Shown: positions 6,060 through 60,476, counted from the whole stretch's first letter. The stretch: DNA of 63,525 bases, filler included, from Malassezia furfur (GCA_052055015.1; 45 parts of 45 records of this genome joined end to end with filler, not necessarily neighbours in it), one strand, 5' to 3'. Numbers and translations: made by a program. Notes: generated by a model from the letters alone, not told the origin.

Positions 6060-6377
6060 TCAGGAGCCGCGCTTATCGAGCGCGGCAAACATGGTGGAGC
6101 TCTCGCTGTATTCGGCGCCCGGGATGCCGCGGAAGCTGTGTGAGAGCGCCGATACGTACCGCTTGCGCATGTCCCACAAAGAGCGCTTGCACTGCACAAA
6201 TCCCTTGTACGCCTGCTGGCACTCGATGGGCAGCTCGGCGCGGTGGTCCGTCAAACACTCCTTGCCCGTGTGTCCGTGCACCTGGACGCAGTCAGACGCC
6301 TGCAGGCACTTGGCCAAGTCCTCGCGGAGCTGGTCGCACTGCCGTCAGTCGCGCGCCGCACGCACCACCCCCCGCAT
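6060..6377 (-). CDS. PET191: Cytochrome c oxidase assembly factor Pet191/COA5, complete; introns 6339-6365 and 6136-6159
   Basis: Splicing gives MRGVCDQLREDLAKCLQASDCV...ECQQAYKGFVQCKRSLWDMRKRFRG (twin CX9C-type protein with the DMRKRFRG motif). Confidence 0.88.
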
Positions 6378-6484
6378 CGTCCGCGCCGGACGAAGAACGC
6401 CACGTGCCACGCCGGCGGCTCCCGATCACGTGGCAGACTGGCTTTTCGGCGGTTTGCGAGCAGCCGACGGCAGCGCGACGCAGC

Positions 6485-7271
6485 ATGGACGCGGCCGAAG
6501 ACGTAGCGTCTGCACCGGGCCCTTCTACCGATGCTGGCGCGCGGCGGCACTTTTTGCGTCCGGACGATGCGCCGTCCCACGTGCATGACACCAGCGCGCC
6601 GGGCGTGGCCGAAGTGCTCGTGCTCGACCCCGGGACGAGCGAGTCGCCCACCGAGGAGCAGGAAGAAGAGACGCGCGCCGTCGAGCGCCATCTGCGGCGC
6701 TGGGCCGAGCAGGAGCGGCTGCAGCGGAAAAACTCACGGAGCCAGCCGGTGCGCAACCACAGCGTGCTGCCGATGCACACGACGGGTCTCGTGCGCAAGT
6801 TGAGCAGCTCGATCGCCGCGCGGCACCGACATACCCCTTCTGCCTACGACAATGCGTTTGAGATGGTGCAGCCGAGCGAGTACGAGCGGCCAGCAGATGC
6901 GCCACGCGCGCCCACGCGCTACGCGTCGGTCGACAGCGAAGAGGGCCACTTTGTGCACCTGGGCGAGCCGAGCGAGCAGCAGGCACTGCAGGCCGACCAC
7001 TCGCACTACTTTGACCCCGACGGGCACGCGGGCGACATCAGCTCGGTGTCGTTCGACGACTTTGACGAAAATAAGGCGCCGCACGGCGCGCCGCCGCCCG
7101 ACGTAGGGCCCGCGCCGCCATCGGCGGCCGCGTACGACGACGCGTCGCCGCTTGCCAGTCCGACGCCCGCCGACGATGCCACCATGGCCGCGACGCTGGC
7201 GCGCATTCGCTCCGACGACTTCCCGCGCGTCACGGTGGGGCGCGCGTCCAGCATCGCGGCGCGGCGCGGCG
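6485..7271 (+). CDS. Hypothetical protein, N-terminal part (MDAAEDVAS...)
   Basis: ATG at 6485, divergent from PET191, frame open to the contig end; no family recognised. Confidence 0.6.
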
Positions 7272-7371
7272 NNNNNNNNNNNNNNNNNNNNNNNNNNNNN
7301 NNNNNNNNNNNNNNNTTAATTAATTAANNNNNNNNNNNNNNNNNNNNNNNNNNNNNNNNNNNNNNNNNNNN

Positions 7372-8735
7372 TCCAGCGGCGCCGTCCGCGCGTGCACGCC
7401 GGGGCCGAGCTCGCGAGTTGCGGTGCCGCGCTCGCCCCTCGCGCCGGGACCGTCGAGTCCCGCCGCCGTTGAGGGCCCTCCGCCTGGCGCGTCGGCGTCG
7501 CCCGTGCGCGCCCAGCTCGGCACGTTTGCGGCGCCCGAGACGCCGCTGCGCACGCCGCAGCGTGCGGCGCCCGTGCGTGCGCGCCCCGGCAGTGCGCTCG
7601 GCACGACGCGCCCCCGAACGATACCCAGCGCCCGCACGCCGCGCGGCGCACCGGCCATCTCGGTCGGCCTGAGCCCGTGCGTGTACCGCACGGGTGTGCG
7701 CACGCCGGGCAGCGCGCGCACCTTTACGCCGCCGTTCAAAAAAGCGCCCGTGACGCCTGTGCGTGCGCCGCCCGAGCGTGTGCCGCTCTTTGACCTCACG
7801 GCGCCCGCTGCGCGGTTGGACTACCGCGCGGCAGGCTTTTGGCCGCGCCCGCAGACGTGGGAGGCGGCGATCGCGCGCGGCGTGCCCGTCGAGGCGTGCA
7901 TGATTCTTGCGGACCCTCCGTGTGCGGCGCACTATACCCTGTCTGGCACGCACGGCGTCGACGAGGCGCTCGCGGCGCTGCACGCGCTCGGCGCGCAGCG
8001 CGCGACGCGCAAGTGGGTGCAGCACCACTACACGCTCATCCTATGGAAGCTGGCGGGCTACGCGGCGTCGAGCTCGTCGGACCCCGTGTCGTGGTGGCAG
8101 TGGGAGCACGTGCTGAACGCGCTGCGCTACCGCTACGAGCGCGAGGTGCACCGCGGGGCGCACAGCTGCGTGAAGCGCATCCAGGAGCGCACCGCGCCTG
8201 CGGACCGCGCCATGGTGCTGTGCGTGTATGCGGTGCAGCGCCTGCCCCATGCGGACCCCGACGAGGGGCCGTCCACGGTGCTGCACCTCACCGACGGGTG
8301 GTACCTGATCCGTGCCGAGTTGGATGCGCCGCTGCAGCGCGCCGTGGACGCCGGCAAGATCCAGCGGGGGCGCAAGCTCGCCATCTGTGCCGCCCAGCTG
8401 CACGCGTTTGGCGACGGTACGCCCGCGCTCGACGCGCTGCCGACGTCCGACCTCGTGCTCGCGGCGAACGCCACGGCGCTCGCGCCGTGGGACGCGCGCC
8501 TCGGCTTCCACCGCGCGCCGTTCGTGTCGAGCCTGTCGCGCCTCACGAGCGACGGCGGGATCGTCGGCGCGATGGACGTGGTACTGGATCGCATCTACCC
8601 GACCGGCTATCAAGAAGGCCACCGCGATGCACGCGGCCTGCCCGTCTTCCCCCACGCCGAGCACGGCGGCGAGGAAGAGGCGGAGCGTGCCGCGCGGTGG
8701 CACACGGCGCGGCACGGCGCCGAGGCGCAGCTGCG
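7372..8735 (+). CDS. BRH2: BRCA2 homolog, PhePP motif plus helical and OB1 DNA-binding region, fragment
   Basis: FTPPFK (PhePP), WVQHHYTLILWKLA, LRYRYEREV, LTDGWY, ANAT..APWDARLGF. Confidence 0.93.
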
Positions 8736-8836
8736 NNNNNNNNNNNNNNNNNNNNNNNNNNNNNNNNNNNNNNNNNNNNTTAATTAATTAANNNNNNNNN
8801 NNNNNNNNNNNNNNNNNNNNNNNNNNNNNNNNNNNG

Positions 8837-10060
8837 CCGCTGCTCATCGAAAAGATCCCGGTGCGCAACGGCAACGGCACTGTGATGATCGCCGAGTTTG
8901 GGTGCCTCAACTCGCGCTCGATGCAGCTCCTGCGTCCGATCATCGAGGAGTTTGCGAAGCACGTCGAGTGCGACCCCGGCGCGGCGGCGGCGGACGCGAC
9001 CGCCGAGGCGGTCAACGTGAACGGCATCGCCGCAGTGGACAGCGTCGCGACGATGCCGACGGTGCGCGACTTCTTCGTGATCCACGAGGACGTCCCGCAG
9101 GCGGACTTCCACGCGTTCACGCACCTCCTCGACACGCACCCCGAGTCGTACCTCAACCCCGCGTGGCAGGCGTCGCACAAGCCGTCGCTGCAGAACTGCG
9201 TCTTCTCCTCGTTTGTGGCGCGTCCGTTTGGCTCGCGCATCGTGCCACAGGACACCCTGCACTTTGGGTTCAGCTTGATGGACCTGCAGTGGACACATAC
9301 CCCCAACGCCACCGACGTCTCCCTCGCGACCACCGCGCAGGCCGAGCTCACGAGCTTTCTGCTCGCGCGCGCCAGCGAGTTTGCCAAGGGCGGCGTGCTC
9401 GTCATGGCGTTCATCGCGCGCTCCGAGGCCGACGACGCGCCCACGGCGCCCCTCGCCGCCGGGCTCGACCGCACGCGCCCCGGCGCGGCGCCCACGGGCG
9501 CTCCTCCACCACTCTCTCCGCACGCGCCCCGCGACATCTGGGCGACGATGTCGGACATGCTCGTGCCGTGCCTGCAGCGCCTCGTGTCCTGCGGCATGCT
9601 CAAAAGCACCGTCGCGCGGCAGCTGCTCACGCTGCCGATGCACCCCCGCACGCCGTCGCAGACGATGCGCGTGCTCAACGACCTCGACCACCTCTGGGAG
9701 CTCGACTGGAGCTGCGGCGTGGGGCAGGACACGCCGCTTCTCAGTGCCTCGGGGCGCGAGCCGGCCGTGTGCAGCGAGCGCGAGCCGCTGCGCCTGCCGC
9801 AGCCCGCATGGGTGGCGCTGCAGTCGGGGCGCATCTCGCATGCGTTGTACACCGAGCACGTCATCCAGATGTTCAAGCATCTCTACGAGTCTCACTTCCG
9901 CATGGTGCTCCGCGAGCGCGGAAAACTGAGCAAGGGCGCATCCGAGTTTATCCTCGATAGCCTCTGGGACGTGCTCTCCTCGCGCATCGAGGACACGCAC
10001 GCCTCGCCCCTCGCCGAGTGCGAGCTCGAGGTGCAGCTGATTGCGCTGCGCCGCCGGTAG
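8837..10060 (+). CDS. SAM-dependent carboxyl methyltransferase-like (SABATH/Methyltransf_7 fold) protein, C-terminal part
   Basis: IAEFGC, VIHEDVPQADF, FSSFVARPFGSRIVP..TLHFGFS...LQW and FLLARASEFAKGGVLV parallel SABATH motifs in order. Confidence 0.6.
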   Translation, partial: PLLIEKIPVRNGNGTVMIAEFGCLNSRSMQLLRPIIEEFAKHVECDPGAAAADATAEAVNVNGIAAVDSVATMPTVRDFFVIHEDVPQADFHAFTHLLDTHPESYLNPAWQASHKPSLQNCVFSSFVARPFGSRIVPQDTLHFGFSLMDLQWTHTPNATDVSLATTAQAELTSFLLARASEFAKGGVLVMAFIARSEADDAPTAPLAAGLDRTRPGAAPTGAPPPLSPHAPRDIWATMSDMLVPCLQRLVSCGMLKSTVARQLLTLPMHPRTPSQTMRVLNDLDHLWELDWSCGVGQDTPLLSASGREPAVCSEREPLRLPQPAWVALQSGRISHALYTEHVIQMFKHLYESHFRMVLRERGKLSKGASEFILDSLWDVLSSRIEDTHASPLAECELEVQLIALRRR

Positions 10061-10294
10061 TTCGCCACCGCTGTATAGTACACAAGGGAGAATCCCCGTT
10101 GACGTTCGCGCGCTCGCCCGTACCCCGGCGCCCGTCAGGCACCGTGCACGCCCCGGCGCCCGCCAGGAACCGCGCCCGCCCACCGTGCGCGCCCNNNNNN
10201 NNNNNNNNNNNNNNNNNNNNNNNNNNNNNNNNNNNNNNTTAATTAATTAANNNNNNNNNNNNNNNNNNNNNNNNNNNNNNNNNNNNNNNNNNNN

Positions 10295-11137
10295 CACGGC
10301 GCCGCTCTGGCTCGCCGACAGGCTCGAGCGCGGGCGCGGGAGCGAGCTGCGCTCGGCGCGCGGGCGCGTCGCAAGCGTCGCAGTCTGGGCGTTCTGCAGA
10401 CGCATCTGGAGCTGCCGCATGTGGTCGCGCAGGCGCTCGAGGGTATAGGCCTTGCCAGGCGGAGCGCCGCGCCGCGCCGTGACGAGGTCGCTGAGGTGCA
10501 GCTCGTCGTCGTCGGCGCCCGTGTCCTCCGCGGCGTCCTGGGGCACGGGCGCAGGCGCAGGCGCGGGCGCGGACGCGGGCGCGGCGCGCTGGCGCACCGC
10601 GAGCTCCTCGCGCAGGTCGCGCAGCTCGTCCTTGAGCCGCTGGTTCTCTTCCTCGAGACGCGTCTTGTCCTCAAGCTCAGACTCGAGCAGCGCGGTGCGC
10701 TCCATCGCCGAATTGTACTGGCGCTCCATGTCGGCGAGGGACGAGTTGATCATCCGCTCGGCGTTCTCGAGCTCGTCGTTGTCGAGCTCCATGTCGCGCA
10801 GCTTGGTTTTGTACGCGTCGTGCGACTCGCGCAGCTTGGACAGCTCGCGGTGCAGCTCGCCGAGTGTGGTGTTGTGCTCAGCAAGCGACTGCTGGTACTT
10901 GCCGCGCCACTCGTCCACGTCCGCGCGCAGCGCCTCGTTCTCGGCCTGGAGCGCGTCGGCGCGTGCGGAGGTCTGCGCAATGTCCGCCTCGAGCTCCGCC
11001 TCGAGCTCTTTCGAGGACTCCATAAACTCCTGCAGACCATTCCCGGCCTCGCGCAGCGCATCCTGCATGTGCTGCACCTGCGCCTTGTAGTGCAGCGCCT
11101 CCTCGGCGGCATGGCTGAACCGCGGCGCGTCGCTCAT
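10295..11137 (-). CDS. nudE: Nuclear distribution protein NudE/Nde1, N-terminal part
   Basis: LQEFMESSKELEAELEADI, KLRDMELDNDELENAER, ERTALLESEL coiled-coil signature. Confidence 0.9.
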
Positions 11138-11186
11138 GCTCGACGCCGCGACCAAACACGCATCACGTGCAAGTGTTGCTTCCACG

Positions 11187-11648
11187 ATGAGCGCTGCGAC
11201 GCCGCTGCGCCGCGGACCGCGCGCGTCGCTCGCGCGCGTGTCGACGCCCCAGGCAGGGCCACGGCGCTTCGAGATTGGCGACGAGGTGCGCTTCGAGGGC
11301 AGCGACCTGGTCGGCGTCCTCCGCTACCTCGGCCCGGTCACCGGCCGCGACGGCCACTTTGCCGGTCTCGAGCTGATCGGCGCGAGCGCCGGCCGCGGCA
11401 AGAACGACGGCACGATCGCAGGGTACGTGTGCGAGCTCACCCAGCGTCCAGTACTTTGCTACGGCGCCGAACAACGGCGTGTTTGGGCCCGCGGCCAAGC
11501 TCGTGCCGCTGCATGCACGGCCCACCAGCGCGACCGCTCGGCCGCTGTCGTCGCGCAGCGCAAACCGCACGGACGAGCGGCCCGCGTCGCGCACACGCAG
11601 CCACATGCCGCTGCCCAACGGCACGCCGCAGCGCACGCCTGCGCCACG
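11187..11648 (+). CDS. CAP-Gly microtubule plus-end protein, CLIP-170/Bik1-like, N-terminal part; intron 11423-11444
   Basis: GVLRYLG...FAGLEL...GKNDGTIAG|VQYF...NNGVF; removing the 22-nt intron restores the CAP-Gly motif. Confidence 0.8.
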
Positions 11649-11748
11649 NNNNNNNNNNNNNNNNNNNNNNNNNNNNNNNNNNNNNNNNNNNNTTAATTAA
11701 TTAANNNNNNNNNNNNNNNNNNNNNNNNNNNNNNNNNNNNNNNNNNNN

Positions 11749-12758
11749 CTTCGCGCGGTAGTCGTAGAAGCCCTGCGCGTGAGTGGAGGCGGCGCACGTA
11801 CCTGGCCCGACTTGACGCCGAGCCAGCCGGCCTGCACCATGCGGCGCAGGAGGCCGGGCGGCGCGTAGTGCGGCTCGCCGGTCGCTTCGTAGATCGACTC
11901 CATGACGCTGTGTGAGCGGTGGGGGCGACGCACTGTAGACAGATATCCTGCGTAAGCGGCGCACACGTACCAGCCCCACAAAGTCGGCGAGGCGCAGCGG
12001 GCCCATCGGGTGGCGCATGCCAAGCACCATGGCCTTGTCGATGTCCTCGTATGTCGCCTCCTTGGCCTCGGCCATGCGCACCGCCTCGCGCATCGCCGCG
12101 ATGTTGATGCGGTTCACGATGAAGCCCGGCGTGTCGACGCACAGCACCGTGCGCTTGCGGCACGCGACCGCAAACGCCGTCGCGCGCTCCACGGCCTCGT
12201 CGCTGGTCTGCAGCGCGCGCACGATCTCGACAAGGCGCATCACCTGCACCGGGTTGAAAAAGTGGATGCCGACCACCTGGGGTGAGCCGTTCGAAGACGT
12301 ACGCGTGCGGCGCTTGTCGCGGCCTCAGCGGCGTCCGTATACGCGTCGGCGGCGGCGCGCGCGAGCGCGGTGATGCTGAGCGCCGACGTGTTGGACGCCA
12401 GGAGTGTGTGGAGCGGTAGGCGCTGGGCGAGCTCGTGGAAGAGGCGCTGCTTGACGCTCATGTCCTCCGATGCGGCCTCGATGACGAGATCGGGCGCATG
12501 TGCCGACGCGAGCTCCTCGATGCTATGGACGACGTGCACGCCGTCGAGGATCGGCCCGACGAGGCGCGGCTCGATGCGGCGGTACTTGGCGGCCTTGCGC
12601 AGTTGCTCCTCGAGCGAAGCGCGGCCGCGTTCGGCCTGTTCCACGCTGATATCGACGAGGACGATGCGCGGGACGCGTGCGTGGACGGCGGCTACGAAGG
12701 CGATGCCGATGCCCATCTGGCCGCAGCCGAGCACCGCGAGCTGCTGCACGTCGGACAT
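11749..12758 (-). CDS. 3-hydroxyacyl/3-hydroxybutyryl-CoA dehydrogenase, near complete; introns 12277-12302, 11948-11970, 11908-11933, 11773-11801
   Basis: GCGQMGIGIA Rossmann motif, LASNTS, GIHFFNPV, DTPGFIVNR, HPMGPLRLADFVGLD, GVKSGQGFYDY after splicing. Confidence 0.93.
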
Positions 12759-20405: not shown

Positions 20406-21736
20406 CCTGCGCCGCGCCGTCGTCCGCCGCCGCGTCGGCCGCATCGGCCTGCGCGGCCTGCCGCACCTGCGCGACGTGCCGCGACTTGTGCCAGAGGCGG
20501 TGCGCGAGCGCCGGCACCTGCTCCGCGTCCGCCTTGAAGTGCTCGACGCGCGAGCGCTGCCCGTCCTTGCCGACGAGCACCTGCTCGATCTGCTTCTGGG
20601 AGAGCTTGAGCGTGCCGTGCGGCAGCGTATAGTGGGGGCACACGAGCACGTCGAGCGCGTGCGTCGGCGTGCCTTGCGCAACGGCCGGCGCGAGGTCGGC
20701 GATCGCGAGGCCAAAGCGCACGTCGGGCTTGTCGGAGCCGTAACGCTGCATCACATCCGCGTACGAGTACACCGGGAACGTGCCGCTCGGCAGCTCGGCC
20801 ACGGAGCGCCCGGCCGCCGCCCACATGGCGCGCACGAGGCCCTCGGTGGTGTCGCGCACCTCGGTGCCACCGATGTGCCACGCGCTGGTGGGTGCGTGCT
20901 CGGCGCCGCGCACAAAGCTCATCTCGAGATCGAGCTGCGTAAACTCCGGCTGGCGGTCCTTGCGCCCGTCCTCGTCGCGGAAGCACTTGGCGAACTGGAA
21001 GTAGGCGTCGCACACGCCTGAGGCCATGAGCAGCTGCTTTGGCTGCTGCGGCGACTGCTGCAGCGCATAGAACGACGGCGGCGCATCGGCGGCGCCGCGC
21101 GTCGGCACGAGAAACTCGCGTGCGCCCTCGGGTGTGGAGCGCAGCAGGACGGGCGTCTCGATCTCGGTAAAGTGGCGGTCGTGCAAGAAGCACCGCGCGG
21201 CATGCGCCACGCGGCTGCGCCGCCGGATGTTCTCGCCGAGCGCCGCGCGGCGCAGGTCAAGGTACCGGTAGCGCGCGCGCAGCGTCTCTTTGGGCAGCGG
21301 GGCGTCGGGATGGCACTGCGTCGCGTAGAACGGCAGCGAAGCGTCGGCGGCATTGAGCAGCTGCCATGCGTCCACCACGACCTCGATGGCGCCCGTGGAC
21401 ATGTCCTGGGTCAGAACAAAACGGCACCTACCGCGTTCTGGGCGCCGGCCGCGCGCGGCTGCACCGTGCCGTGGATCGACACGACGCTCTCCACCGGCAG
21501 GTCGCACAGCGCCTCGAGGGCGCGCTCGTCCTGGGCGCCGCCGAGCTTGAGCTGGACGACGCCCGAGGCGTCCTGCAGCGGGACGAACGCGAGCTGCTTG
21601 GAAATCTTGCGCGGCGTGCGCATCCACCCGCCGAGCACGACGCGCTCGCCGACGTGCGCGGCGTGCAGCTCGCCGCAGCGGTGCGTGCGTGGCGCGGTGG
21701 CCCACTGCGCGGTCGGCGCGTGCGTGTGCTCGCGGA
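20406..21736 (-). CDS. MSD1: Mitochondrial aspartyl-tRNA synthetase, fragment; intron 21406-21431
   Basis: RTHRCGEL, RYRYLDLRR, EIETPVL..STPEGAREFLVP, QSPQQ.KQLLM, CFRDEDGRKDRQPEFTQLDLEMSF, YGSDKPD. Confidence 0.95.
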
Positions 21737-21836: not shown

Positions 21837-23163
21837 GTCTTGTGCATCGACACCACCGTCTGCAGCTCGTCGACCTCGCGCTGCAGCTGCGCAGCGGCGA
21901 CACGCAGCGGCTCCGCATCCTGCGCGCGCTCACGCAGCGCCGTCACCTCGGCCTCGGCGTGCGCCGCACGCGCCTGCAGTGCCGCAACATCGGCCTGCAC
22001 CTCGCGCGTCTGCTCGACGTCGCGCTGCAGCTCCGCGAGGCGCCGCTCCGCTTCGTGCGCACGCGCCGTCTTGGCTTCGGCCGCGGCATGCGCCGCATCC
22101 CGCGCCTGCTCCGCGGCCGTACGCGCCGCTTCGTGCGCTTCGGCCTGCGCCTGCTCGGTCGCCAGTCTGTGTGAGTGGGCCACGTACCGTTCCGCGAGCG
22201 CTGCATACGCACGCGCGTGCTGCGCGTCCCACGCCTCGTGCGCATCGACGCGTTCACGCACCGATGCCAGCAGCACATCGCTCTGCTGCACGCTACGTGC
22301 GAGCGCATCGACCGTCGCCGCAAGGCTCGCGATGCGCCGGGCGTCAGCCGCGCGCTGGGCAGACGCCGCATCCATGGCCTGCGCCCACTGCGCACGCTCC
22401 GCGTCCCACGCTTGGGCGCGCGCCACATGGTCGGCACGCTGGGTATCTAACGCGGCGGCGTGCGCCGTCCGCAGCGCCTGCAGCTCGTCGGCGTGCTGCG
22501 CTGCCAGTGCCTCGGTCGCGCGCGTGTGCGTGTCTTGCAGAGCGCGCACGGCTGTGTCATGGGCTTGTGCTGCATCCCGCTGCGCATCGGCATGCGTCGC
22601 GCGCTCGGCGTCCAGCGCATCGGTGTGCGCCTGCGCCTGCGCTGCGAGCGCCGCAGCATGCTGGGTGCGTGTGGTGTGCAGCGCCGCGTCGTGTGCGGCC
22701 GTGCGCGCCGCGAGCGCCTCGGCGTGTTTCGCATGCAGCGACTCGAGTGTTGCACTGTGCTCGGCCCGCAGCGCCTCGAGCGCCGCGTCGTGCTCGGCCC
22801 GCAGCGTGTCCAGCGCTGCGTCGTCCACCAGCGGCCGCGCGCGGCCCTCGACGCACGTCGCATCAGGGTCCGGCTGCAGCGCGGCCACCGCATCGAGCGC
22901 CAGTGCATAGTTGAACTGCGTATGCTCCAGCTCGCTCGCGAGCGCCGCGGGCGTTTGCGCGGCCCGCTCGTCGTACGCACGGCACAGCGCCTTATGCTCC
23001 GCGGCACGCTCCGCGTCCCGAAACTCAACCATCTCCATGCACTCGTCCAGCAGGATCGCCAGTGGCTCCAGCTCGTACGGCACCTGCCCTACGGGCTCTG
23101 GCTCGCCGAGCACGAGCGGCGCATAGAGCCGCTCGCGCACCAGCGCGCGCGCCGCGTCCGCCG
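21837..23163 (-). CDS. Ala/His/Glu-rich long coiled-coil protein, internal fragment
   Basis: Open frame across the contig with 11-residue-like repeats (LRAEHDAALEA); family not recognised. Confidence 0.65.
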
Positions 23164-24767: not shown

Positions 24768-25402
24768 CTACAGTAATTTGAATTGACGCGTAAGCTGGTC
24801 CATGACCGAAATGGGCGCTGGACCGAGGCCGATTACGGTGCGACTGCCGGGCTCTACTTGTGTGCGGCCCCTGCGTGAGTGTGTGTCACGTACGCGTCCT
24901 GGATGATGCGCGCTGCGACGCCCAGCGACTTGGCGGCCTCGGCGAGGGATTGCAGTCCGTCCTCGTTGGGTACCTTGACAGCGATCTTGGTTTGGCTGGA
25001 ATGAGTCTCGCGCACGTACCCCAAACGTTGCCAAGTCTGTACGTACTGGGGCGTGATCCGCTTAGCAAGACGGTACGCCGCAAGAGTCGCGTGTCTCATA
25101 TAAGTAACTGCGGCAACTTACCCGCATTGTGCTGCGATTTTTCCCTTGTCCATTTTCAAGTCGGTGCGAACGCCGAGCACCTGGGGGTAAGCGGACACAC
25201 GACCGCGCGCACGTACCATCTTGCATTCCTCCGAGGTAGGGGCAGGGGCATCTTCCTCGCCTTCGTGGCCGTCGTCTTCATCGAGCTCTTCTTCACTGTC
25301 GGACAGCACAACTCCGTCCTGTGGCCACCATGCATGACGCGCATTATGCACAAAATAGCCCACAACTGCGCCCGCGGCAAAAAGGCCCGCCGTACTCGCC
25401 AT
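24768..25402 (-). CDS. PTH2: Peptidyl-tRNA hydrolase 2, complete; introns 25181-25216, 25095-25121, 24996-25019, 24871-24893
   Basis: Spliced product has [29 protein letters not shown]...GQTKIAVK...IQDAGRTQVEPGSRTVIGLGP. Confidence 0.93.
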
Positions 25403-28257: not shown

Positions 28258-28838
28258 ATGCATGCGGTGCAGGTAGGGCAGCGTGCGCACGGCTGACGCA
28301 CAGACGCGGTTCTGGGCGGTGCGCGACTCGCTCGCGCCCGTGCTGCGCGAGAGCAAGTTTCGCGAGCACGGGCGCATCACGCCCGAAGAGTTTGTCCTTG
28401 CGGGCGACTTTCTCGTGCGCGCGCATCCGGCGTGGCAGTGGGCGTCCGGCGAGTCGTCCAAGGCGCGCGAGTACCTCCCGCGCGACAAGCAGTTCCTCAT
28501 AAACAAGGGCGTGCCGTGCTTCCGCCGCGTGAGCACGCTGCCGGCCAAGAAGCGGCGCAGCCGGCTGCTCTCGCCGAGCTCCACCACGAGCCTCTCGCGC
28601 CAGAACCGCGAGGCGCGCGCGTTTGGCGGCACCGCGGACGACACGGAAGAGGTGCTATACCTCGACGACGAGCACGACAAGCACGAGAGCTGGATCATGA
28701 TGCACGCGACACCGGACCATAGTGCGGCGCCGTCGCCCGATTCGCGGCGCGCGTCGATGCTGAGCGACGACGTAGGCCGCGCGCTGCCCGCGCACCTCGA
28801 GCGCCTGTCGCTCGACGAGACGTGGGGCGGCGCGCGCG
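28258..28838 (+). CDS. ATG3: Autophagy E2-like enzyme Atg3, N-terminal part; intron 28273-28303
   Basis: [43 protein letters not shown]...WQW...[15 protein letters not shown]. Confidence 0.93.
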
Positions 28839-29055: not shown

Positions 29056-30248
29056 CTATGCGGCCTGCGCGGTGCGTGCGCGCGGCATGGAAAACGGCGA
29101 ATTGCCCGTGAGCGTGGCGGCGGCGTCGGCAAACGCGGAGCGCTGCCTGCATCCGCTGCCATCGTAGGCCTGCTCGGCGCTCGGTAGCTGTGTGAGGGAG
29201 ACGGCGGACGTACCCATTGCTGGATCTGCTGGACGCGTGTGCTGTCGACCGGGTGCGTCGACAGGATCGACTGCGCCGACTCGGCGAGTTTGCCCTGGCG
29301 CCCTGCGCTGCCGCCGCCCATGCGCTGCCAGAAGGAGACGGCCTGCGACGGGTCGAAGCATGCCTTGGCCATGATCTCGAGGCCGATGTGGTCCGCCTCG
29401 CTCTCCATTGTGCGCGAGTTGGGCAGCGACATGAGCAGGTTGAGCGCCATGCGGCTCAGCCCGATGTCGAAGCCGAGCATGTCCATGAACAGCCCGAGCA
29501 CATACACTACCGTCAGCCCCGACATCTTCTCCGCCGGGTGCCGCGCGAGGACGTGCGCAATCTCGTGCGAGAGCACGGTCGCGAGCCCGTCGTCGTTCTG
29601 GCACACGGGCAGAATGCCGGTGAACACAAAGATGGAGCCGCCCGGGAGCGCAAACGCGTTCTTCTCCGGGCTCGCGATGACGTGCACGTTCCACTGCGTC
29701 GGCGGCGCGCCGGGCGCACGCTCGCGGTCCAGATCGCCGCACACGTCGATGATGCGCTGCGCGACGCTGCGCACACGCACCGCGTCCGGCGACCACGACG
29801 ACAGGACGCGGTCGCCGTACGTCTGCATGGTCTGCTCGTACGACTGGCGCCCAAGCTGGTCCTCGTCTGTGACGCTCACGTCGAGGAAGCGCCAGCGCCC
29901 GGTCTCGGGCACCTGCTGCAGGTGGCAGACGTAGTAGACGCCGCCGGCGCCCGCGAGCACGAGGACGACGGTGAGCTGGCGCTGGCGCTGGGTGAGCTGG
30001 GTCGGTGCGGCCGGGCGCTGTGTGGGCGCCTCGTAGGCGTACAGAGGTGTGCCGCCGCGGTACGCGTCGTACGGCGGCGGCGGCGCGCGCGTGGTGCGTG
30101 CGCGCTGCTGGTCGCGTGCGCCCTGGCGGAGCAGGTCGATCAGGAGCTGTTCCTGCTCGGCGCGGCGGCGGCGGTCGTCGTCGCGCGCGAGACGCGGCAG
30201 CGTGCGTGTGAGTGCGATGCTGCGCGGCGCGGGTGCTGGGTGAGCGCC
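29056..30248 (-). CDS. OMA1: Mitochondrial M48 metalloendopeptidase Oma1; intron 29188-29213
   Basis: VPETGRWRF, NAFALPGGSIFVFTGIL, LSHEIAHVLARH (HExxH), SRTMESEADHIGL, LSTHP. Confidence 0.93.
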
Positions 30249-30491: not shown

Positions 30492-31531
30492 ATGGTACGT
30501 GGTGGCCGGCTCACGCGCAGTTCCGCAAGTACGTTGCGCGCGCCACTGACCCAGTACGTACGATAGCGACAACACCGTCTGTACGTCTCGCCACTCACGC
30601 AGTCTCGCCGCAGGGCCGGCTCCACCAGGTGGAATACGCGCTCGAAGCCGTCAAGCAGGGCTCGGCGGTGGTCGGCGTGCGCTCCCAGACGCACGCGGTG
30701 CTTGTCGCGCTGAAGCGCGCCCCGTCGGAGCTCGCGTCGTATCAGCGCAAGATGCTCAAGATCGACAAGCACATCGGCATCGGCTTCGCCGGCCTCACGA
30801 GCGACGCGCGTGTGCTGAGGTACGTCGCTGTGCGGCTCACGCAGCAACTACATGCGCCAGCTCGCGCTGTCGTCGCGCATGATGTACGCGCGCGCGCTGC
30901 CGCTGTCGCGCCTCATGAGCGCGCTGGCCGACCGCGCGCAGCTCAACACGATGCAGTACGGCAAGCGGCCGTACGGTGTGGGCTTCTTGGTGATCGGCGT
31001 CGACGATACCGGCCCGCACCTGTACGAGTTCTCGCCGACGGGCAACTGCTTTGAGTACTATGCGATGTCGCTCGGCGCGCGCAACCAGAGCGCCAAGACC
31101 TACCTCGAGCGCCACATGGACGAGTTTGCGGACGTCGATGTGAACGAGTTGGTGGTGCATGCGCTGCGCGCGCTGCGCGAGACGCTCCCGCAGAACAAGG
31201 ACGTACGTCTTGCGCACTCACGCAGCTCGAGCGCGCCGCGGTGTCGGTCGCGATCGTGGGCCCCGGCGCGAACGCCGACCCCAACTCGCCCAAGGTGCGC
31301 GAGGGACAGCAGTTTACGCTGCACGAGGGCGACGAGCTCGCGCAGTGGTTCGACGCGTACGTTGCCGTGGACTGACCCAGGCTCGGCCCCAAGGAGCGCC
31401 AGCGCGCGGCGCAGCAGGCGGCACAGGCCGAGGCCGCGCAGGCCGACGCGGCCGGTGGAGAGAATGGCGAGCAGGGCACGGGCGACGCCGCGCCCACCGA
31501 TGCCCAGGCGCCGATGGACGAGGAGAACTAG
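30492..31531 (+). CDS. PRE5: 20S proteasome alpha-6 subunit, complete; introns 30495-30520, 30529-30554, 30581-30602, 30820-30844, 31203-31225, 31357-31380
   Basis: Splicing gives [33 protein letters not shown]...[14 protein letters not shown]...RPYGVG...[12 protein letters not shown]. Confidence 0.95.
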
Positions 31532-36320: not shown

Positions 36321-37263
36321 TCACGCGGCGTCCTCTGCGCCGGCGGCGGGCTGGCGCTGCGCCGCGCGTGCGCGGCGCACCTCCTCGCCGTGCTCCTGGC
36401 GCTCGGCGATCCACTGCTGGCGCGTGCGCCGCTTCAGCGCGTAGCGGTGCGTGCGCGAGTGGAGGTGCTTGGCGCGCTCCGCTTCGCGCACGCGGAAGGG
36501 GCGCGCGGCGTCGCTCGTGCACACCTCGCAGGTGAACAGGGCGTTGCGCTCGAGCGCGCCCTGCTCGCGGGGCGTGCGCGCGAGCAGCTCGTCGGCCGCC
36601 GCACACACGGAGCGCGGCGCGGGCATCGACGCGTGCGCCAGGAACGCCTGCGTGAGCGCCTCGGCGGGGCGGCGCACGTCGGTGTCCCAGCGCGCGGGGT
36701 CGGTGGCGTCGAGCACGTACAGGTACACCTCCTCGCCGCGGTCCTGCGCGGCGTGCACGGCCGGGAGCAGCTGGTTGCGGATCCACGCGGTCTGCCGCTT
36801 GGCGTAGCGGCGCGTGGCGACCTGCATCGCGTCGATCGCCGCGGCAAAGAGGCGCTCGGCGGTGGCGTCGTCGCCGTGCTGCTCGCGGTGCGTGAGGTAG
36901 GCGTCAAACTCCTTGTACCCTGCGTGAGCGGCGCACGTACCGATGGCCTGGTAGATGCCGCGCGTGTAGTCCACGTCGGTGCGTGCCTCGCGCGCCAGGG
37001 CCCGCAAAGCGTAAATCTCGTCGAGGAGGCCGCGCTGCGTGAGGGGGCGACGTACCTCGACCATCTGGCCGATGCGCCGGTCGAGCCGCGCATTGAGCGC
37101 CGCGCGCTCGCTCCACACCCAGAACAGCAGGCGGCGCGCGCCGAACGGCGGCGCGTGCGGCGCGGCGTGCGCGGCGTCCTGCGCACGGACCCACTCGGAC
37201 TGCGGCGCGCCGGTGTCGCGCAGGATGCACAGCGCGCGGTACAGCTTGCGGTGGTCGCGGTGG
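36321..37263 (-). CDS. MOD5: tRNA dimethylallyltransferase, C-terminal part; in-frame introns 37035-37055 and 36920-36940
   Basis: WDHRKL.RAL, LDRRIGQMVE|RGLLDE, GIYQAIG|YKEF, ATRRYAKRQ.AWIRN, C-terminal CEVC...HLHSRTH zinc finger. Confidence 0.93.
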
Positions 37264-37363: not shown

Positions 37364-38631
37364 GAGGGCGCGCGGGGGGGCGCACTGGGCCCCGCGCCGC
37401 TCGACGGCACGGCACGGGCGGCGCCCGGCGGGTCGCACCGTGCGCGTTTGGCGCTTTTTTCGGGACTGTCCCACACGCGCATCGCCGGTACATGACTGGC
37501 GTAGCGCGCCGGGCGTGCCAGTCGTGCGCTCCGCTCGGGTGCGGGCATCGGTGGGGCCTCGGCCTCGGCCGCGCGCGCCGTGCCGGGCGTAACGACTGGC
37601 GCTGCATGCGGCGCGGTACTGGCCGTGCTGGGCCCAAAGGGCAGGGCCGCGCCGGTCGTTGTGTCGAGCTGCCCCCTTCCGTCCTTGGCCGGCGACGGCG
37701 GTGCAGGCAGCGGCGCCGTGACGCGCTGCGGCGGCACGCGCTCCTGCGTAAACGGCGTATGGCGCACGGCCGTGCGCCCTGGCACCCATCCCGCGGGACT
37801 CGGTGCGGCGCTGGGTGCACTGGCGCGCGGCGTGCCGGCTGCGCGGCGCTCCGGGCTGGTGGACGGCGGCGCGGCACGCACCGGCGACGTGTATACGTCG
37901 TGCTGGGCCGGCCGCGCCGGTAGACGCGTGCGCAGCGGCGAGACGCCCGGCGTGCGCTGCGGCGTCGGTGCGAACCGCGCCGCGGCCCAGTCGTGTAAGA
38001 GCGACTGCACGGGCGTGAGGGATTGTGGCGATGCATGCGAGGGCGTACGCAGCGGCGTGCTTGTGGCGCGCGGCTTGTCGTCCGGCGACGCACTCGCGCG
38101 CAGCGGCGTGCGCCGCGGCGAGTTGGAGACGTCGCCGAGCGCTTCGCGCACCAGGGAGCGGTGCGCGATTTGCGCATCGGTCGGCGACGCGGCGCGTGCC
38201 ATCCCCGGCGAGCCGTCGTCCGAGCTGGGCGTGTGCGGCAGCGGTGTCGTGCGGTCGTACAGCGAGGTGGGTGCACCGCCGCCCAGGGCCGCAACCATGC
38301 CGTGCTCAGGCGTGCGGGGTGTCCCAAAAAAGATGGTGTGCGCTGGCACGGGCGAGGCCGACGGAGCGGGTGGTGGTGTCGTGGGCGGCGTGGCCGCCCC
38401 GTCCGTGCAGGGGGGCACCGGGGGGAGCGGGCGTGCGCGCGGAAGCAACACCGCCGGCGCGTCGTCCGGCAGGGTGTGGAGCGTCCGCACAGGCTGCGCG
38501 CTCTGGACTGCGCGGGCTGTGTGCGGCGGCGTGCCCCAGTGCTCGTGCTTGTGGGGCGACGGTGTCCACATCGCGCGGCGCGGCGGCGTGTGCGGCGTAG
38601 ACGCCGAAGCCGCGGCGCCGACGTCGTGCAT
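37364..38631 (-). CDS. Hypothetical disordered Pro/Thr/Ser-rich protein, N-terminal part
   Basis: Open frame from ATG 38631 with many S/T-P sites and REALGDVSN (D-box-like RxxLxxxxN). Confidence 0.6.
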
Positions 38632-53952: not shown

Positions 53953-54052
53953 NNNNNNNNNNNNNNNNNNNNNNNNNNNNNNNNNNNNNNNNNNNNTTAA
54001 TTAATTAANNNNNNNNNNNNNNNNNNNNNNNNNNNNNNNNNNNNNNNNNNNN

Positions 54053-55328: not shown

Positions 55329-55428
55329 NNNNNNNNNNNNNNNNNNNNNNNNNNNNNNNNNNNNNNNNNNNNTTAATTAATTAANNNNNNNNNNNNNNNN
55401 NNNNNNNNNNNNNNNNNNNNNNNNNNNN

Positions 55429-56702
55429 ATCCACCGCTTTGCCGGCGCCTTTGTCGACCCTGCTCTTGGTGCGGCAAGCGCAATCAATTACTGGATCATG
55501 ATGGTTTCGATGCTGTGCCTGGAGGTCAATGCACTGACAAGTGTGCTGTTGTACTGGGTCGACGAGAGTAACGAGCATATGCTAAATATTCTTATGCCGT
55601 TCCTTGTGCTAGGCTCCTACTTTTTGCTGAATATCCGGGACTCGCGCTGGTTTGGTGAGGTGGAATTCTGGATCGGCCTCTGCAAGATCGTTACGGCTGT
55701 TGGTCTGCTGATTATGACCGTGTTCCTGATGTGCGGTGCCAATCCCAAGTTGGATTCGTTTGGCTTCCGTTACTGGGTGCATCCAGCGCCAATGAATGAG
55801 TATCTCTTTTCAGGAGGAAAAGGGCGGTTTTGTGGCGTACTCGCAGCCATCATTAACGCCGCATGGACCTTCCAGGGACCAGACATGGTGTCAATTATTG
55901 CAGGCGAGGCACGCAACCCACGTAAGGTTATTCCTAAGGCGTTCAAGACAGTGTATGTGCGTCTGACGGTCTTCTTTATCGGTTCGGCCATCGCTGTTGG
56001 CATTCTTGTGCCGTACAACGACGAGATCTTGAACGATGCCATCCAGAAGAGCCTGCCCGGTGGCTCGCGTACTGCGTGGGTGCGTGCGTTGAACCGCCTC
56101 GACATCCCTGTGCTGCCCCATATTATTAACGCGGTTATTTTCACCAGCATCTACTCCGCTGGTAATGCCATGACGTTTGCCGGCTCGCGTTCGCTGCTCG
56201 GCATGGCGATGGAGAAAAAGTTGCCCAAGATCTTTACGTGGACAAACCGCAATGGTGTGCCATACGTTGCAGTCGTTGCGACGCTCTCGATTGGTCTGCT
56301 CTCTTTCCTGCAAGTGTCTAAGGGTTCGAGCCAGGCGCTCTTTTACTTTATTGATGTGTCCACCTGCTCGCTCCTCGTGACATGGGTGATTGTTGCCGTA
56401 TCACATCTGTGCTGGCGCCGTGCGATTGCCAAGCAAAACTTCCCGCTGAGCAGCCTGCCGTACGCGTCCAAGCTCGCGCCCTACACTACCTATTATGCGA
56501 TCGCCAACGGCACGCTTGTACTTCTCATCTGCGGCTGGGACATTTTCATCAAGGGCCGTTGGGACCCCGTGATCTTTGTGCCGCAATACTTTGCGCTTGG
56601 CATGGTCGTCTTCTTTTACTTCTTCTACAAGGTTCTCCAGCGCACCAAGATTGTCCGCCCATCTACACTCGACATCTCGCACGGTATTGGCGAGCTGATT
56701 GC
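55429..56702 (+). CDS. Amino acid permease (YAT/APC family), fragment
   Basis: FGEVEFW...CKI, FGFRYWVHP, AGEARNPRKVIPKA, HIINAVIFTS.YSAGN, NRNGVPYVA; multiple TM helices. Confidence 0.93.
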
Positions 56703-56802
56703 NNNNNNNNNNNNNNNNNNNNNNNNNNNNNNNNNNNNNNNNNNNNTTAATTAATTAANNNNNNNNNNNNNNNNNNNNNNNNNNNNNNNNNNNNNNNNNN
56801 NN

Positions 56803-57959
56803 CGAGCCCTGCGCCTGCCGCCGGCACGGCGGCATCTGCGCCGCCCGCGAGCCAGGCACCCGCTGCGCCGCCCGCGTCCAAGAACCCCGAGGAGTGGTCG
56901 GTGGACGAGGTGCTCGCGTGGGCCAAGGGCAAGGGCTACGACCCACAGACCATCGACAAGCTCGCTGAGCACGAGATCAGTGGCGATGCGCTGCTTGCGA
57001 TGGACATCAACCTGCTGAAAGAGATCGACATTGTGGCGTTTGGCCGGCGCTTCCACCTGGCCAACGGAATCAAGGAGCTGCGTGCGCAGGCGGCCGGCGA
57101 GGCGCCGCCGCCGTCGACGCACGTCTCGCCCGTGCCGCCGTCGAGCTCGTTTGCGACGGCAGGTGCGTCTGCGCCGCTCTCGGCGCCCGTGTCGGCGACG
57201 GGCTCGTCGGTGCCGACGCCGACGCCGCCCGTCTCGGCGCCGTTCTGGTCGCCGTCGATGTCGACGCAGCCGACGCTGCCGAGCTCGGCGTCGGTGCGGG
57301 AGGCGCCCATGACCTCGCCGACGTCCGAGTGGAGTACGCACCACCTCGACACGCCCGCGTCGTCGTACACGGGCGGCGGCGCGGCGCGTGCCGAGCCGCT
57401 GTATCTCTCCGGCTCGCAGCTCGGTGCCAACTTTACGCTCGCACCGCCCGCACACTTTGCGGCGGCGGGCAAGGCGCCCGAGGAGCCGACGATCCGTGCA
57501 GTGCCCCCCGTGATGCCGTCGTACCTGGCGGCGACCGCGACGCCGCCCAAGCCCGCGGCGCCCACGGCCGCTCCAGCAGCCACCGTGTCGCCGACCGCCG
57601 CCGCGGCGGTGCCGTCGCCGATGCTTACGAGCCCCACGCGCGGCGCGGAGCCGCCGAGCGCCCCACCAAGCACCGCAACGCCCGAGTCGGCGGCGCAACG
57701 TGCGGCGGCGCACCCGGCAGCCGAACCGCTGCAGGCCCCTGCCGAGCGCCCTGCGCGGCAGCCGTCCGCGTCGAGCTCCTCGTCGCGCCTGCTGCACTTC
57801 CCCGAGATGGGCCGCAACCTGTTTTCGCCGCGCAAGGAGGCGCGCGTGCCGGACGACGGTGGCAAGGCGGCGCGGGCGAGCGCGGTGCCGAGCAAGGCGC
57901 AGATCTCGCTGCCCACGAGCAACGCCAACTTTGCCGCCGCGGGCGCCGGTGCCGTCTGA
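56803..57959 (+). CDS. Boi1/Boi2/Pob1-like polarity protein, SAM domain fragment; 3' end probably chimeric
   Basis: PEEWSVDEVLAW...EHEISGDALLAMDINLLKEIDIVAFGRRF (SAM); the expected PH domain is absent. Confidence 0.75.
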
Positions 57960-58172
57960 CCAAACGCGCCGTGGGCGGGTGCGTTAGCGGCTGCGCCGCC
58001 GCACGAGAAGCCGCCCGGCGTCTGTTCCGGTGCCTTGGTGCCAAACAGGTTGGCCGGGGGCTGGGCTGCGGGNNNNNNNNNNNNNNNNNNNNNNNNNNNN
58101 NNNNNNNNNNNNNNNNTTAATTAATTAANNNNNNNNNNNNNNNNNNNNNNNNNNNNNNNNNNNNNNNNNNNN

Positions 58173-59370
58173 TGGGCGGTGGCGCGGGTGGCGACGCCTT
58201 GTCGCGGCGCGAGGCGGGGCGGATGCGGTGCGGCCCGCCGGGGCCGCGCATGTCCCAGTGGTCCCAGTTTTCCATGATGCCGAGCACCTCGCCCCACTGT
58301 GCGCTGCCGACGCTCACGAGCCCGTCGTTGCCGTGCAGCTTGCCGTGGAGGTTCTGGCTGCTGCCGTCGTACTGGGCGCCGCTGGTGTCCGACTCGGCGG
58401 CCTTGTCGAGGATGAGCTTGGGCAGCCACAGGGGGTGGAAGAGCGAGATGTCCGGCGTGCGTGCCGCGACGCTGAAGTAGCGGACGTGCGGGTCGTCGCG
58501 CATGCGCGGGTTGAAGAGGCCCGTCATGTACTTGGTCGAGAGCATGGCGTACGCCGGCTGGTCAAAGATGGACAGGATGTAGGAGGAGAGCGTGCTCGAC
58601 ACCGACGTGAGGGCGCGCGTGAGCGTCGACATGCCCGGCACGGTGCCCGACGCCTCGTTGATGCGCTCCTTGGCCTCCTCCTTGCGGCGGAGGAGCGGCT
58701 CCTTGAGGCTGTACGGCAGCGGGCGCTTGGGCGCCTCGGGCGGCTGCACGTCCTGCTCGTGCATCATCTTGTCGATCAGGTCGAGGCCGACGCCGATGTT
58801 CGCGTTGCACCAGTCCATGAACGGGCTGCCGCGGTGCGGCGTCGCGAGCGTCGTGAGCGACGCGGGCGTGTACTCGGTCGGCTGGATGCGCGAGATGATG
58901 TAGCGCACGTCCAGGCCGCCCATGCTGTGCCCGACAAAGTTGAGGCGCGCGCCGCGCGCGCCGCTCTCGGCGCTGCACAGCCACGCGTGCAGCGACTCGG
59001 CGCGCTCCTTGATCGAGCCGGTGGGCGGCACGCCGTGCACGAGCACCTCGGCGCCGATGCGCTTGCGCAGCACGTCGAGCGCCGCCGACCAGTACTGGTA
59101 CTCGAGGCCGAGGAACGGGCCGCGCACGTCGAAGCCGTACAGCCCGTGGCACAAAACGATCGGCAGCCGCGGCGTGCGCACGGGGTCAAAGAGCAGCGGG
59201 TGGTGCATGAGCTGCGCGAGCTTGCTCCCTTCGGAGGGGTGCGGCGCCGACTTTTTGGGGGGCGGCGTGCGTGGCGCGGCGTCGCGCCGCACCGCACACG
59301 TCGTGAGCGTGCGTGTGCGCCGGCGGGCGCGTGCGCCGCCTGCGCCGCGCGGGCGCGCTGCAGTCCGCAT
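58173..59370 (-). CDS. Tgl2-like triacylglycerol lipase with probable mitochondrial presequence
   Basis: PIVLCHGLYGF, GHSMGGLD.RY, LTTLATPHRGSPFMDW, NDGLVSV.SA.WG, DHWD; Arg-rich N-terminus. Confidence 0.9.
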
Positions 59371-59539
59371 CCTGGCGGGGGGGACGAGAAGAAGTCGGTT
59401 GGGCACGTGCGCCGCGGCGCGTGGCGGTCTGGGGTCGGGNNNNNNNNNNNNNNNNNNNNNNNNNNNNNNNNNNNNNNNNNNNNTTAATTAATTAANNNNN
59501 NNNNNNNNNNNNNNNNNNNNNNNNNNNNNNNNNNNNNNN

Positions 59540-60476
59540 GATACCCCCCCACGGCGGACGCGGCGCTGCTCGACGCGCAGCACGGTGCCGAGCACCGCGT
59601 CGAGGCGCGCGAGCAGCGCCGCGTCCGCCGTGGGGGGGTATCGCTGGAGCAGGCGCAGCAGCGCCGCCTGCAGCCACGGCACGGGCAGGCCGTGGAAGAG
59701 GTAGATCTCCTTGTAGTCCTCGTCGACGACCACCTGGTGCAGCTGGTCCACGGCCGCGCGGTAGCACGCGCGGAACGCCGCAGGGTCGTCGCGCACCACG
59801 ACGCACAGCAGCTGCGCAACGCTCAGCGACACGCCCAGGTTGCGGTGCCGCACAAGGCGCGCCAGGTGCGCACTCCACTCGCCCAGGCGCACGCCCTCGG
59901 GGAAGACGCGGTACAGGTGCGCCAGCGTGAGCGCGGCCTTCTTCTGGACCCACGTCGAGGACGTCCTGCGTCAGCCCACCACCACGTACGGCGACACGAC
60001 CAGTTTGAGCACGTCTTCGGCAAGCGCCTCGGCGACGCCGACGTCGTGCACGCTCGCGAGCGCGTGCAGCGCAAGGCACGTATTTGCCTCGTTCCGGTCC
60101 GCCAAGTCGCGCCGGATCGCGTCCAGCGCGCCGGGCAGGCGCGCGGCGCGCGCGGCGCCGAGGCACAGCAGCGCCAAATACCCCTGCGTCAGTCAACCCC
60201 ACGCACGATCTGTTTCTCCGAGTACCGCGCACTGTGCAGCAGCTTGAGGATCTCGGCATCGCCCACGTCCACGGGGAAGCCCTGCAGGTGCGTAAAGAGC
60301 ACCTTGGCCACGTACTTCTTCCGCTGGTACCCATCGAGCTTCGCGCCGGCGCCCAGCTTGAGGCGCACGTGCGCCATCTCCTTGTGGACGCGGCGCTCGG
60401 CGGCCTCGCGCGTGGTGCACGCACGCAGCTCGCTGATGTACTGCGTCAGTCCGCGCATCTGCGTCGCCTGCGACAT
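59540..60476 (-). CDS. APL3: AP-2 complex alpha-adaptin, N-terminal part; introns 60184-60206 and 59966-59989
   Basis: MRGLTQYISELRAC, LDGYQRKKYVAK, YSEKQI|GYLA, VQKKAALTL, VPWLQ..LLRLLQ.YP. Confidence 0.94.

Follow-up and report, generated by a model that had tools for sequence, protein, structure and literature searches.

Introduction

Short introns are a known feature of the genus Malassezia. For M. sympodialis, 5,350 curated introns with a mean length of 30 base pairs (bp) were reported in 2017, of which 99% are supported by RNA-seq (PMC5389616), and for M. restricta a mean of 37.2 and a median of 30 have been given (PMC9241646). The annotators of M. restricta lowered the minimum intron length to 15–20 (PMC6473144), and a review terms Malassezia introns "very short" (PMC7426719). 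The available text of these M. sympodialis and M. restricta papers reports short introns in the same genus as summary lengths, without branch geometry, a length floor or splicing factors; the terms "branch", "snRNA" and "spliceosom" occur 0 times each in PMC5389616. Here, we describe introns of 21–36 nucleotides (nt) in a 63,525-nt stretch of DNA from Malassezia furfur (GCA_052055015.1), called the window in the following, together with the geometry of such introns in the genome and the splicing factors it encodes. We assign a probability of about 0.7 to the reading that these are U2-type introns of a furfur-group yeast, at least some of them at ancestral positions, which would have been pared down to hardly more than the signals they carry.

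Outside the genus, several systems are comparable in part. Introns of ~25 nt are present in Paramecium (PMC5014332) and of 15–16 nt in Stentor (PMC9505925). Like the genome studied here, Stentor has thousands of GT-AG introns, and all its small nuclear RNAs (snRNAs) are kept. In both, the branch A lies five nt before the last base, which is the 10th of 15 nt in Stentor and the 16th of 21 nt here. In contrast, the Stentor introns are rich in AU and show a poorly defined branch consensus with the A at +10/+11, whereas those described here are GC-rich with strong donor and branch signals and a floor at +16. Yarrowia, Trichomonas and Giardia (PMC2483917) share with the present introns the missing pyrimidine tract and a branch fixed a few bases from the AG. 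However, the introns of Yarrowia (median 204, n = 719) and Trichomonas (104, n = 34) are longer and few, whereas here minimal length is combined with thousands of introns. Myxozoans and dicyemids (PMC13644364) likewise show medians down to 22 bp, a missing or very short tract and a conserved U2, but their splice motifs are weak and their U2AF is reported to be conserved, in contrast to the strong motifs and the decayed RNA face of U2AF65 found here. Cyanidioschyzon merolae (PMC10158995) is without the U1 small nuclear ribonucleoprotein (snRNP) and has 26 of 71 proteins, whereas U1-70K, U1C and thousands of introns are present in M. furfur. A branch recognition centred on SF1/BBP, as proposed here, is also known from reduced spliceosomes and from budding yeast with its Mud2. 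The latter is a degenerate U2AF65.

Malassezia is absent from the available text of both a 2026 paper on lineages whose introns measure less than 30 bp (PMC13644364; 0 occurrences) and a review on reduced spliceosomes (PMC10158995). No description of branch geometry, length floor or U2AF65 of Malassezia was found in the full-text literature, subscription papers being mostly outside the search, and the accessible parts of PMC8476143, PMC3560662, PMC2396436 and PMC12506658 contain nothing on these points.

Ultra-short introns and the evidence for their removal

The window consists of 45 separate contigs of 1,261–1,384 nt joined by artificial spacers and is not a single locus; the whole genome assembly (G000) comprises 1,856 contigs and 13.68 Mb. 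Between positions 6136 and 60206, 25 GT-AG introns were identified in 11 genes (Table 1), with a median length of 24 nt and a mean of 25.0 nt. A preliminary description of the window had listed 24 introns in 10 genes with 21–36 nt and a median of about 24–25 nt. The range and the median agree with this, and the intron missing from the earlier count is probably that of the coiled-coil gene.

The rigid layout that had been claimed was found again. The donor is GTACGT in 19 introns, GTGCGT in three, and GTAGGT, GTAAGT or GTAGGG in one each; the acceptor is CAG in 24 of 25 and GAG in the remaining one. A branch-like CTNAC or CTNAT is present in every intron, with its A 5–7 nt from the intron end. 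All 25 combine GT-AG ends with a GTRNGT-like donor, and the branch motif can pair with the GUAGUA of an intact U2 snRNA. The consensus of U12-type (minor) donors is RTATCCTT, and none of the 25 donors matches it. In the window, the strict form of the pattern occurs 21 times compared to 0.68 ± 0.82 (maximum 3) over 100 dinucleotide shuffles. In the whole genome 5,681 matches stand against 186 for the reversed pattern (overlapping matches counted), a roughly thirty-fold excess, which bears out the genome-wide occurrence that the window alone could not show.

If kept, 15 of the 25 segments would shift the reading frame and four would introduce an in-frame stop at a length divisible by three, whereas six are divisible by three and free of stops. 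The earlier statement that each removal restores a motif or the frame has to be restricted with respect to these six. Three of them, two of 21 nt in MOD5 and one of 24 nt in PTH2, would be exact insertions of 7 or 8 residues relative to solved structures (yeast Mod5, 3eph, and 1q7s, respectively), one differs in length between the gene copies (36 versus 35 nt), and two (6136–6159 and 22167–22187) are more weakly supported. For the 23 others, removal restores a conserved protein. Pfam models resume past the junctions, as for the proteasome model (1–60/62–174) as well as for PTH2 and adaptin (Table 1). PRE5 without its six introns is collinear with PRE5 of M. furfur, Sporisorium (a smut) and Armillaria (an agaric), and the alignment score is lowered if any one of the six is kept. 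Furthermore, all six are taken out in a public M. furfur PRE5 model (P0002).

The genome looks like that of a furfur-group hybrid. One PRE5 exon shares 99% identity with proteins assigned to Malassezia furfur and M. brasiliensis, a second copy at 81–92% identity was found for seven of the 14 window contigs searched, and doubled, hybrid assemblies have been reported for M. furfur (PMC4634964). These second copies served as a built-in control for intron divergence. For the ten introns that could be compared, the donors are 96.7% identical, the segments from branch to AG 89.7% and the exon flanks 90.1%, in comparison to 57.7% for the middle; the lengths differ between the copies in five of the ten, in four of these by 1 nt.

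PRE5 was also compared in metagenomes, where 13 of 80 loci were inspected; seven of these are Malassezia-like and five agaric-like. In the Malassezia-like loci, introns occur at these six positions with patchy loss and lengths of 23–43 nt, one being 69 nt; frequent intron loss within Malassezia is suggested. Per locus, one to four of the six positions are filled. At the same positions, the middles of the introns in other Malassezia are unrelated. In the five agaric-like loci, positions 1 and 4 are occupied by introns of 50–80 nt (two lengths determined by eye). Since these two positions are common to the agaric-like loci, at least two of the introns are old and have since shrunk. New positions and similar copies, as expected for introner-like elements, were not observed. 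The claim that the introns are far shorter than those of relatives also holds, since the median in U. maydis is 95 nt, with a poly-T stretch 15–40 nt from the acceptor (PMC2483917).

Alternatively, the segments could be no introns at all, but assembly errors, coding insertions or recent mobile elements. The six in-frame, stop-free segments would fit such an explanation, which we consider hardly credible given the thirty-fold excess of the pattern, the intron-like divergence between gene copies, the unrelated middles at the same PRE5 positions in other Malassezia and the two positions that are occupied by 50–80 nt in agaric-like fungi. On the level of sequence, the segments are confirmed as real U2-type spliceosomal introns.

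Branch geometry and the 21-nt floor

Length and geometry were analyzed in 600 kb taken from the eight longest contigs. Downstream of 714 GTAYGT sites, CTNAC motifs were counted up to a distance of 300 nt. The branch A was found twice at +15 (control 3), 37 times at +16 (control 4) and 45 times at +17 (control 0). The signal fades by ~+36, and no excess of CTNAC is present at 60–300 nt from the donor. Altogether, 235 introns were called (control 23), of which 201 have 21–40 nt and 28 exactly 21 nt, whereas none has 18–20 nt; for the 206 calls of at most 40 nt, the median is 24 nt. This median, derived from motif calls, compares to 30 in M. restricta and to a mean of 30 in M. sympodialis.

In all 28 introns of 21 nt, the branch A lies at +16 and is followed by 5 nt, so that, for these motif-based calls, the floor at 21 nt is made up of 16 nt up to and including the branch A and the 5 nt behind it. 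In nine longer calls the first motif lies before +16, and in eight of these a second branch-like motif is present at +16 or later (by eye). CTNAC and YAG are separated by 1 nt in 112 of the 201 introns, a purine precedes CTNAC in 78% of them, and the spacer columns show no consensus among introns. A pyrimidine run of at least six between branch and AG occurs in just 3 of 201, which substantiates the missing polypyrimidine tract noted before. Together with the short, constrained distance from branch to AG, this describes a 3' splice site anchored at the branch. Other donor classes show similar length peaks over a higher background, and for GC-AG donors no excess over the control was seen (85 versus 135).

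Decay of the RNA face of U2AF65

U2AF65 is encoded by two copies, the longer of which is cut by the contig start. An alignment to the human protein shows that RRM1 has both of its RNP1 aromatics replaced and RRM2 one of its aromatics. The human residue numbers used here were counted from this alignment with an offset. A wider comparison comprised the query and 120 homologues, with 20 Malassezia-clade rows, one row near-identical to the query, and 101 other fungal rows. The 20 rows form a clade with six named Malassezia records (Shimodaira-Hasegawa-like approximate likelihood-ratio test, SH-aLRT, 99; quick tree built on 70 of the 121 rows). Within the positions of the RNA face (Y152, F197, F199, R227 and Y302), at most three are kept in 20 of 20 Malassezia-clade rows and at most two in 19 of 20. 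In the other fungi, all five are kept in 99 of 101 rows, the remaining two showing gaps only. In human U2AF65, R227 contacts the tract and the exchange R227A cuts tract binding about five-fold (PMC4786784). The RNP aromatics and R227 on the RRM1-RRM2 face, which characterize a pyrimidine-tract-binding U2AF65, are not retained as a set in Malassezia.

The replacements vary from species to species, as expected from lost constraint. Identity of the Malassezia clade to distant fungi is 35.8% for RRM1, 49.6% for RRM2 and 49.7% for the UHM, compared to 54.3%, 72.2% and 50.1%, respectively, for the other smut-group rows. Furthermore, the N-terminal region is shorter in Malassezia, with 2–7 RD/DR dipeptides, whereas 18 of the 21 named outgroup records have 8–36 and the other three are short records. 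The loss of RNA-face residues appears in these alignments as a clear change, which is clade-wide and domain-specific, and it is a change in the machinery even if it arose passively. Quite probably, U2AF65 would be blind to a pyrimidine tract and act mainly as a bridge, while its SF1-binding UHM evolves at a normal rate.

Other components of the spliceosome

Eleven components were sought, namely the U1, U2, U4, U5 and U6 snRNAs as well as U1-70K, U1C, SF1, U2AF65, METTL16 and RED, and nine are present (U2, U4, U5, U6, U1-70K, U1C, SF1, U2AF65 and METTL16). The snRNAs scored above the Rfam cut-offs with one copy of U2 and two copies each of U4, U5 and U6. The GUAGUA of U2 and the ACAGAGA of U6 are canonical and loop 1 of U5 looks normal. 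Two copies each were found for U1-70K, whose RRM matches that of human U1-70K, for U1C and for METTL16. SF1 is intact with the GxxG motif in 121 of 121 rows; as its tree is not resolved into a clean Malassezia clade (support 0.49), only this motif conservation is drawn from the SF1 alignment. With two copies present, the C at +4 is not explained by a missing METTL16, and the canonical ACAGAGA box of U6 likewise rules out that this box has changed in compensation.

A U1 snRNA was not found in the fragmented assembly, neither by the Rfam model (41 of 173 candidates scored), nor by pattern searches for 5' end, loop, Sm-site, promoter and terminator motifs or Rfam scans of candidate loci. Among the pattern candidates, 23 of one pattern and 4 of 16 of another were judged from 80 letters each, and none of 11 ACTTACCTG sites in the genome was U1-like by eye. 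One candidate starting with ACGTACCTGG (L015), which would pair perfectly with GTACGT, turned out to be a 25-nt intron in a protein gene, and a compensatory change of U1 is therefore unsupported. Considering the fragmented assembly and the retained U1 proteins, the U1 snRNA is taken as missed, not lost. For RED, no RED_N match was obtained in the genome by a search without positive control. An Rfam search of the window itself gave no matches.

A truly reduced spliceosome similar to that of Cyanidioschyzon or microsporidia, in which U1 snRNA would be lost or bypassed and U5 and U6 would read the donor directly, could account for the U1 snRNA that escaped the Rfam model and the pattern searches and for the lacking RED_N match. 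However, U1-70K and U1C are kept in two copies each, the matches to the intron pattern number in the thousands where very few introns would be expected, the assembly is fragmented, a second copy was seen for only half of the window contigs searched, and the U1 and RED searches carry the limits given above. Such a reduction is very unlikely here, and the term "reduced" is not supported. From the earlier suggestion of a modified or reduced spliceosome, the first part gains support from U2AF65, and the second gains none, nine of the 11 components having been found.

Several further observations were made on these genes. An AACGGCC motif lies upstream of the U2, U6, U5 and U4 genes and is followed by a TATA box after 36–67 nt in U2, U4 and U5; it is likely a Malassezia snRNA promoter element. 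Used as a search handle, it led to no U1. The U6 snRNA (L001:1486–1605, minus strand, and L002) seems ~15 nt longer than the Rfam model; an additional hairpin may precede the T run, and a single base is inserted in the region of the internal stem-loop. The putative Sm sites of U2, U5 and U4 end with ...TTTTTC(G/T), the usual form being ...TTTG. Tiny introns are also present in U1-70K (three of 23–27 nt), U1C (two of 23 and 32 nt) and METTL16, where a stop-bearing intron of 21 nt is found in both copies.

Possible mechanism of recognition

The introns are laid out as a donor of 6 nt, which is mostly GTACGT, followed by ~6 nt or more of free spacer, (R)CTNAC, usually 1 nt, and YAG. Here, the 3' end would be selected via the branch motif, which would be bound by SF1 and then by U2, followed by use of the first YAG at a near-fixed short step. 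The minimum of 15 nt from donor to branch may represent the shortest loop that is tolerated with donor and branch both held.

For human splicing, a minimum of ~46 nt between donor and branch has been reported (PMC11291888), and the minimum observed here is about a third of this. In an intron of 21 nt, the donor hexamer occupies +1 to +6 and the bases paired with U2 ~+11 to +17, leaving ~4 bases free, so that the RNA pairings of U1 and U2 alone do not overlap. The comparison with the human minimum, in contrast, makes it unlikely that U1 and the full U2 particle are present together as in humans, and crowding of U1 and U2 on these introns is a fair inference. A human-style complex with the footprints of both would not fit, and an early hand-over and a trimmed U2 footprint are the two candidate solutions. 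The chances appear about even that the donor is passed early from U1 to U6 or that the protein footprint of U2 is trimmed. In addition, some tiny introns are separated by exons of just 8, 14 or 26 nt, which argues for a removal of one intron at a time.

A far-reaching version of this model, which is rather doubtful, proposes an assembly by a 15-nt ruler. Here, U2AF65 would be an RNA-blind bridge, the U1 snRNA would be remodelled past the standard models, the donor would be given to U6 before or while U2 docks, and a prespliceosome containing U1 plus U2 would be absent on most introns. According to this reading, normal intron or exon definition would find no room in the 108 nt of PRE5 that hold three introns together with the 8-nt and 26-nt exons between them.

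On the other side, an ordinary fungal spliceosome might be sufficient, if a bias towards deletions had shortened the introns of a compact genome and U2AF65 had drifted passively after the loss of the tract, the order of assembly being unchanged. The normal-looking U2, U6, U5 loop 1, SF1, U1-70K RRM, U1C and METTL16 would fit this explanation, as would the myxozoans, which keep U2 and U2AF with introns of ~22 nt (PMC13644364), and the U1 and U2 pairing sites, which by the layout do not overlap in 21 nt. Nevertheless, the failure of human splicing below ~46 nt as well as the clade-wide and domain-specific decay of U2AF65 speak against an unmodified spliceosome, and we regard this explanation as unlikely.

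Several points weigh against the preferred reading of old U2-type introns reduced to little more than signals and recognized from the branch. RNA support for the 25 introns is by analogy with M. sympodialis, and the length distribution consists of motif calls, mostly with GTAYGT donors, from 600 kb of the genome. Of five calls with 16–17 nt, two are nested in longer introns and three lack an explanation, and in one longer call the sole branch motif lies at +15. As the branch A of Stentor lies at +10, the value of +16 would be lineage-specific and no universal physical limit, and the longer introns at the same PRE5 positions in other Malassezia indicate that the floor may differ by species. Two RRM2 aromatics of U2AF65 are kept in 20 of 20 Malassezia-clade rows, and some RNA binding may therefore remain. 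Finally, the U1 snRNA is without a match, and the protein search covered six families (five found) in comparison to ~70 core proteins.

Features of the window

The introns are compiled in Table 1. A further pattern match at 38005–38048 was dropped, since its removal restored nothing recognisable, and a 21-nt version of the ATG3 intron was replaced by the 31-nt reading. The PTH2 intron at 25095–25121, with its GAG end and weak branch motif, belongs to an allele that may splice poorly.

Table 1. Introns of the M. furfur window with positions counted from its first nucleotide. 3n, length divisible by three.
Gene	Intron	Length (nt)	Position	Strand	Remarks
COA5/Pet191	2	24	6136..6159	-	3n without stop; weaker support; Pfam Pet191_N on preceding exon
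COA5/Pet191	1	27	6339..6365	-	in-frame stop if kept
CAP-Gly domain gene		22	11423..11444	+	inside domain; Pfam model 1-44 of 65 before intron
3-hydroxyacyl-CoA dehydrogenase	4	29	11773..11801	-	
3-hydroxyacyl-CoA dehydrogenase	3	26	11908..11933	-	after 14-nt exon; second copy 25 nt
3-hydroxyacyl-CoA dehydrogenase	2	23	11948..11970	-	
3-hydroxyacyl-CoA dehydrogenase	1	26	12277..12302	-	
Aspartyl-tRNA synthetase		26	21406..21431	-	donor GTAGGT
Coiled-coil gene (without Pfam family)		21	22167..22187	-	3n without stop; second copy 24 nt; weaker support
Peptidyl-tRNA hydrolase PTH2	4	23	24871..24893	-	Pfam model 49-81 then 83-115
PTH2	3	24	24996..25019	-	8-residue insertion versus 1q7s if kept
PTH2	2	27	25095..25121	-	donor GTAAGT; GAG end; weak branch motif; second copy 28 nt with CAG end
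PTH2	1	36	25181..25216	-	3n without stop; second copy 35 nt
ATG3	near gene start	31	28273..28303	+	donor GTAGGG
M48 peptidase (OMA1-like)		26	29188..29213	-	second copy 25 nt
PRE5 (proteasome alpha 6)	1	26	30495..30520	+	position common to agaric-like fungi
PRE5	2	26	30529..30554	+	after 8-nt exon
PRE5	3	22	30581..30602	+	after 26-nt exon
PRE5	4	25	30820..30844	+	position common to agaric-like fungi
PRE5	5	23	31203..31225	+	
PRE5	6	24	31357..31380	+	in-frame stop if kept
MOD5 tRNA isopentenyltransferase		21	36920..36940	-	7-residue insertion versus 3eph if kept
MOD5		21	37035..37055	-	7-residue insertion versus 3eph if kept
Adaptin (AP-2 alpha-like)	2	24	59966..59989	-	in-frame stop if kept; Pfam model 78-125 then 127-223
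Adaptin (AP-2 alpha-like)	1	23	60184..60206	-	donor GTGCGT

Compared with window positions 30492–31531, the public Malassezia PRE5 models P0001, P0003 and P0011 lack 2–5 residues or contain an 8-residue insertion at the positions of tiny introns; these gaps and insertions look like mis-annotated tiny introns. At 60904–62079 (minus strand), the window encodes an SR-like protein with two RRMs and an arginine/aspartate-rich tail, a possible splicing regulator. An open reading frame at 8837–10057 (plus strand) matches the S-adenosylmethionine-dependent carboxyl methyltransferase family Methyltransf_7 (E 2.5e-09), a family known mainly from plants. One contig of the assembly (L128, G000:C86) is rich in AT, matches a group I intron and is probably mitochondrial DNA.

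Significance

The shortness of Malassezia introns is itself known, which makes the finding less surprising than it first seemed; the preliminary description was correct in treating the genus as short-introned, but understated that thousands of introns with a mean of 30 nt had been published for M. sympodialis in 2017. What was not found in print are the 21-nt floor and the clade-wide decay of the U2AF65 RNA face, and an intron-length figure in the M. sympodialis supplement (Fig. S8, PMC5389616) may already show the lower edge. Our verdict is that of an under-described tiny-intron lineage with a modified step of 3' recognition.

For genome annotation this is of practical relevance, as several public Malassezia PRE5 models show gaps or additional residues at the sites of tiny introns. 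More generally, introns of less than 30 nt raise the question of how they are excised by a spliceosome of several megadaltons, for which ciliates, microsporidia, myxozoans and dicyemids are the usual examples. Malassezia offers thousands of tiny introns with strong, readable signals, a sharp floor and close relatives with ~95-nt introns, and methods for transformation and CRISPR have been published for M. furfur (10.1101/638429). With such resources, the minimum distance between donor and branch as well as the need for RNA binding by U2AF65 would be directly testable.

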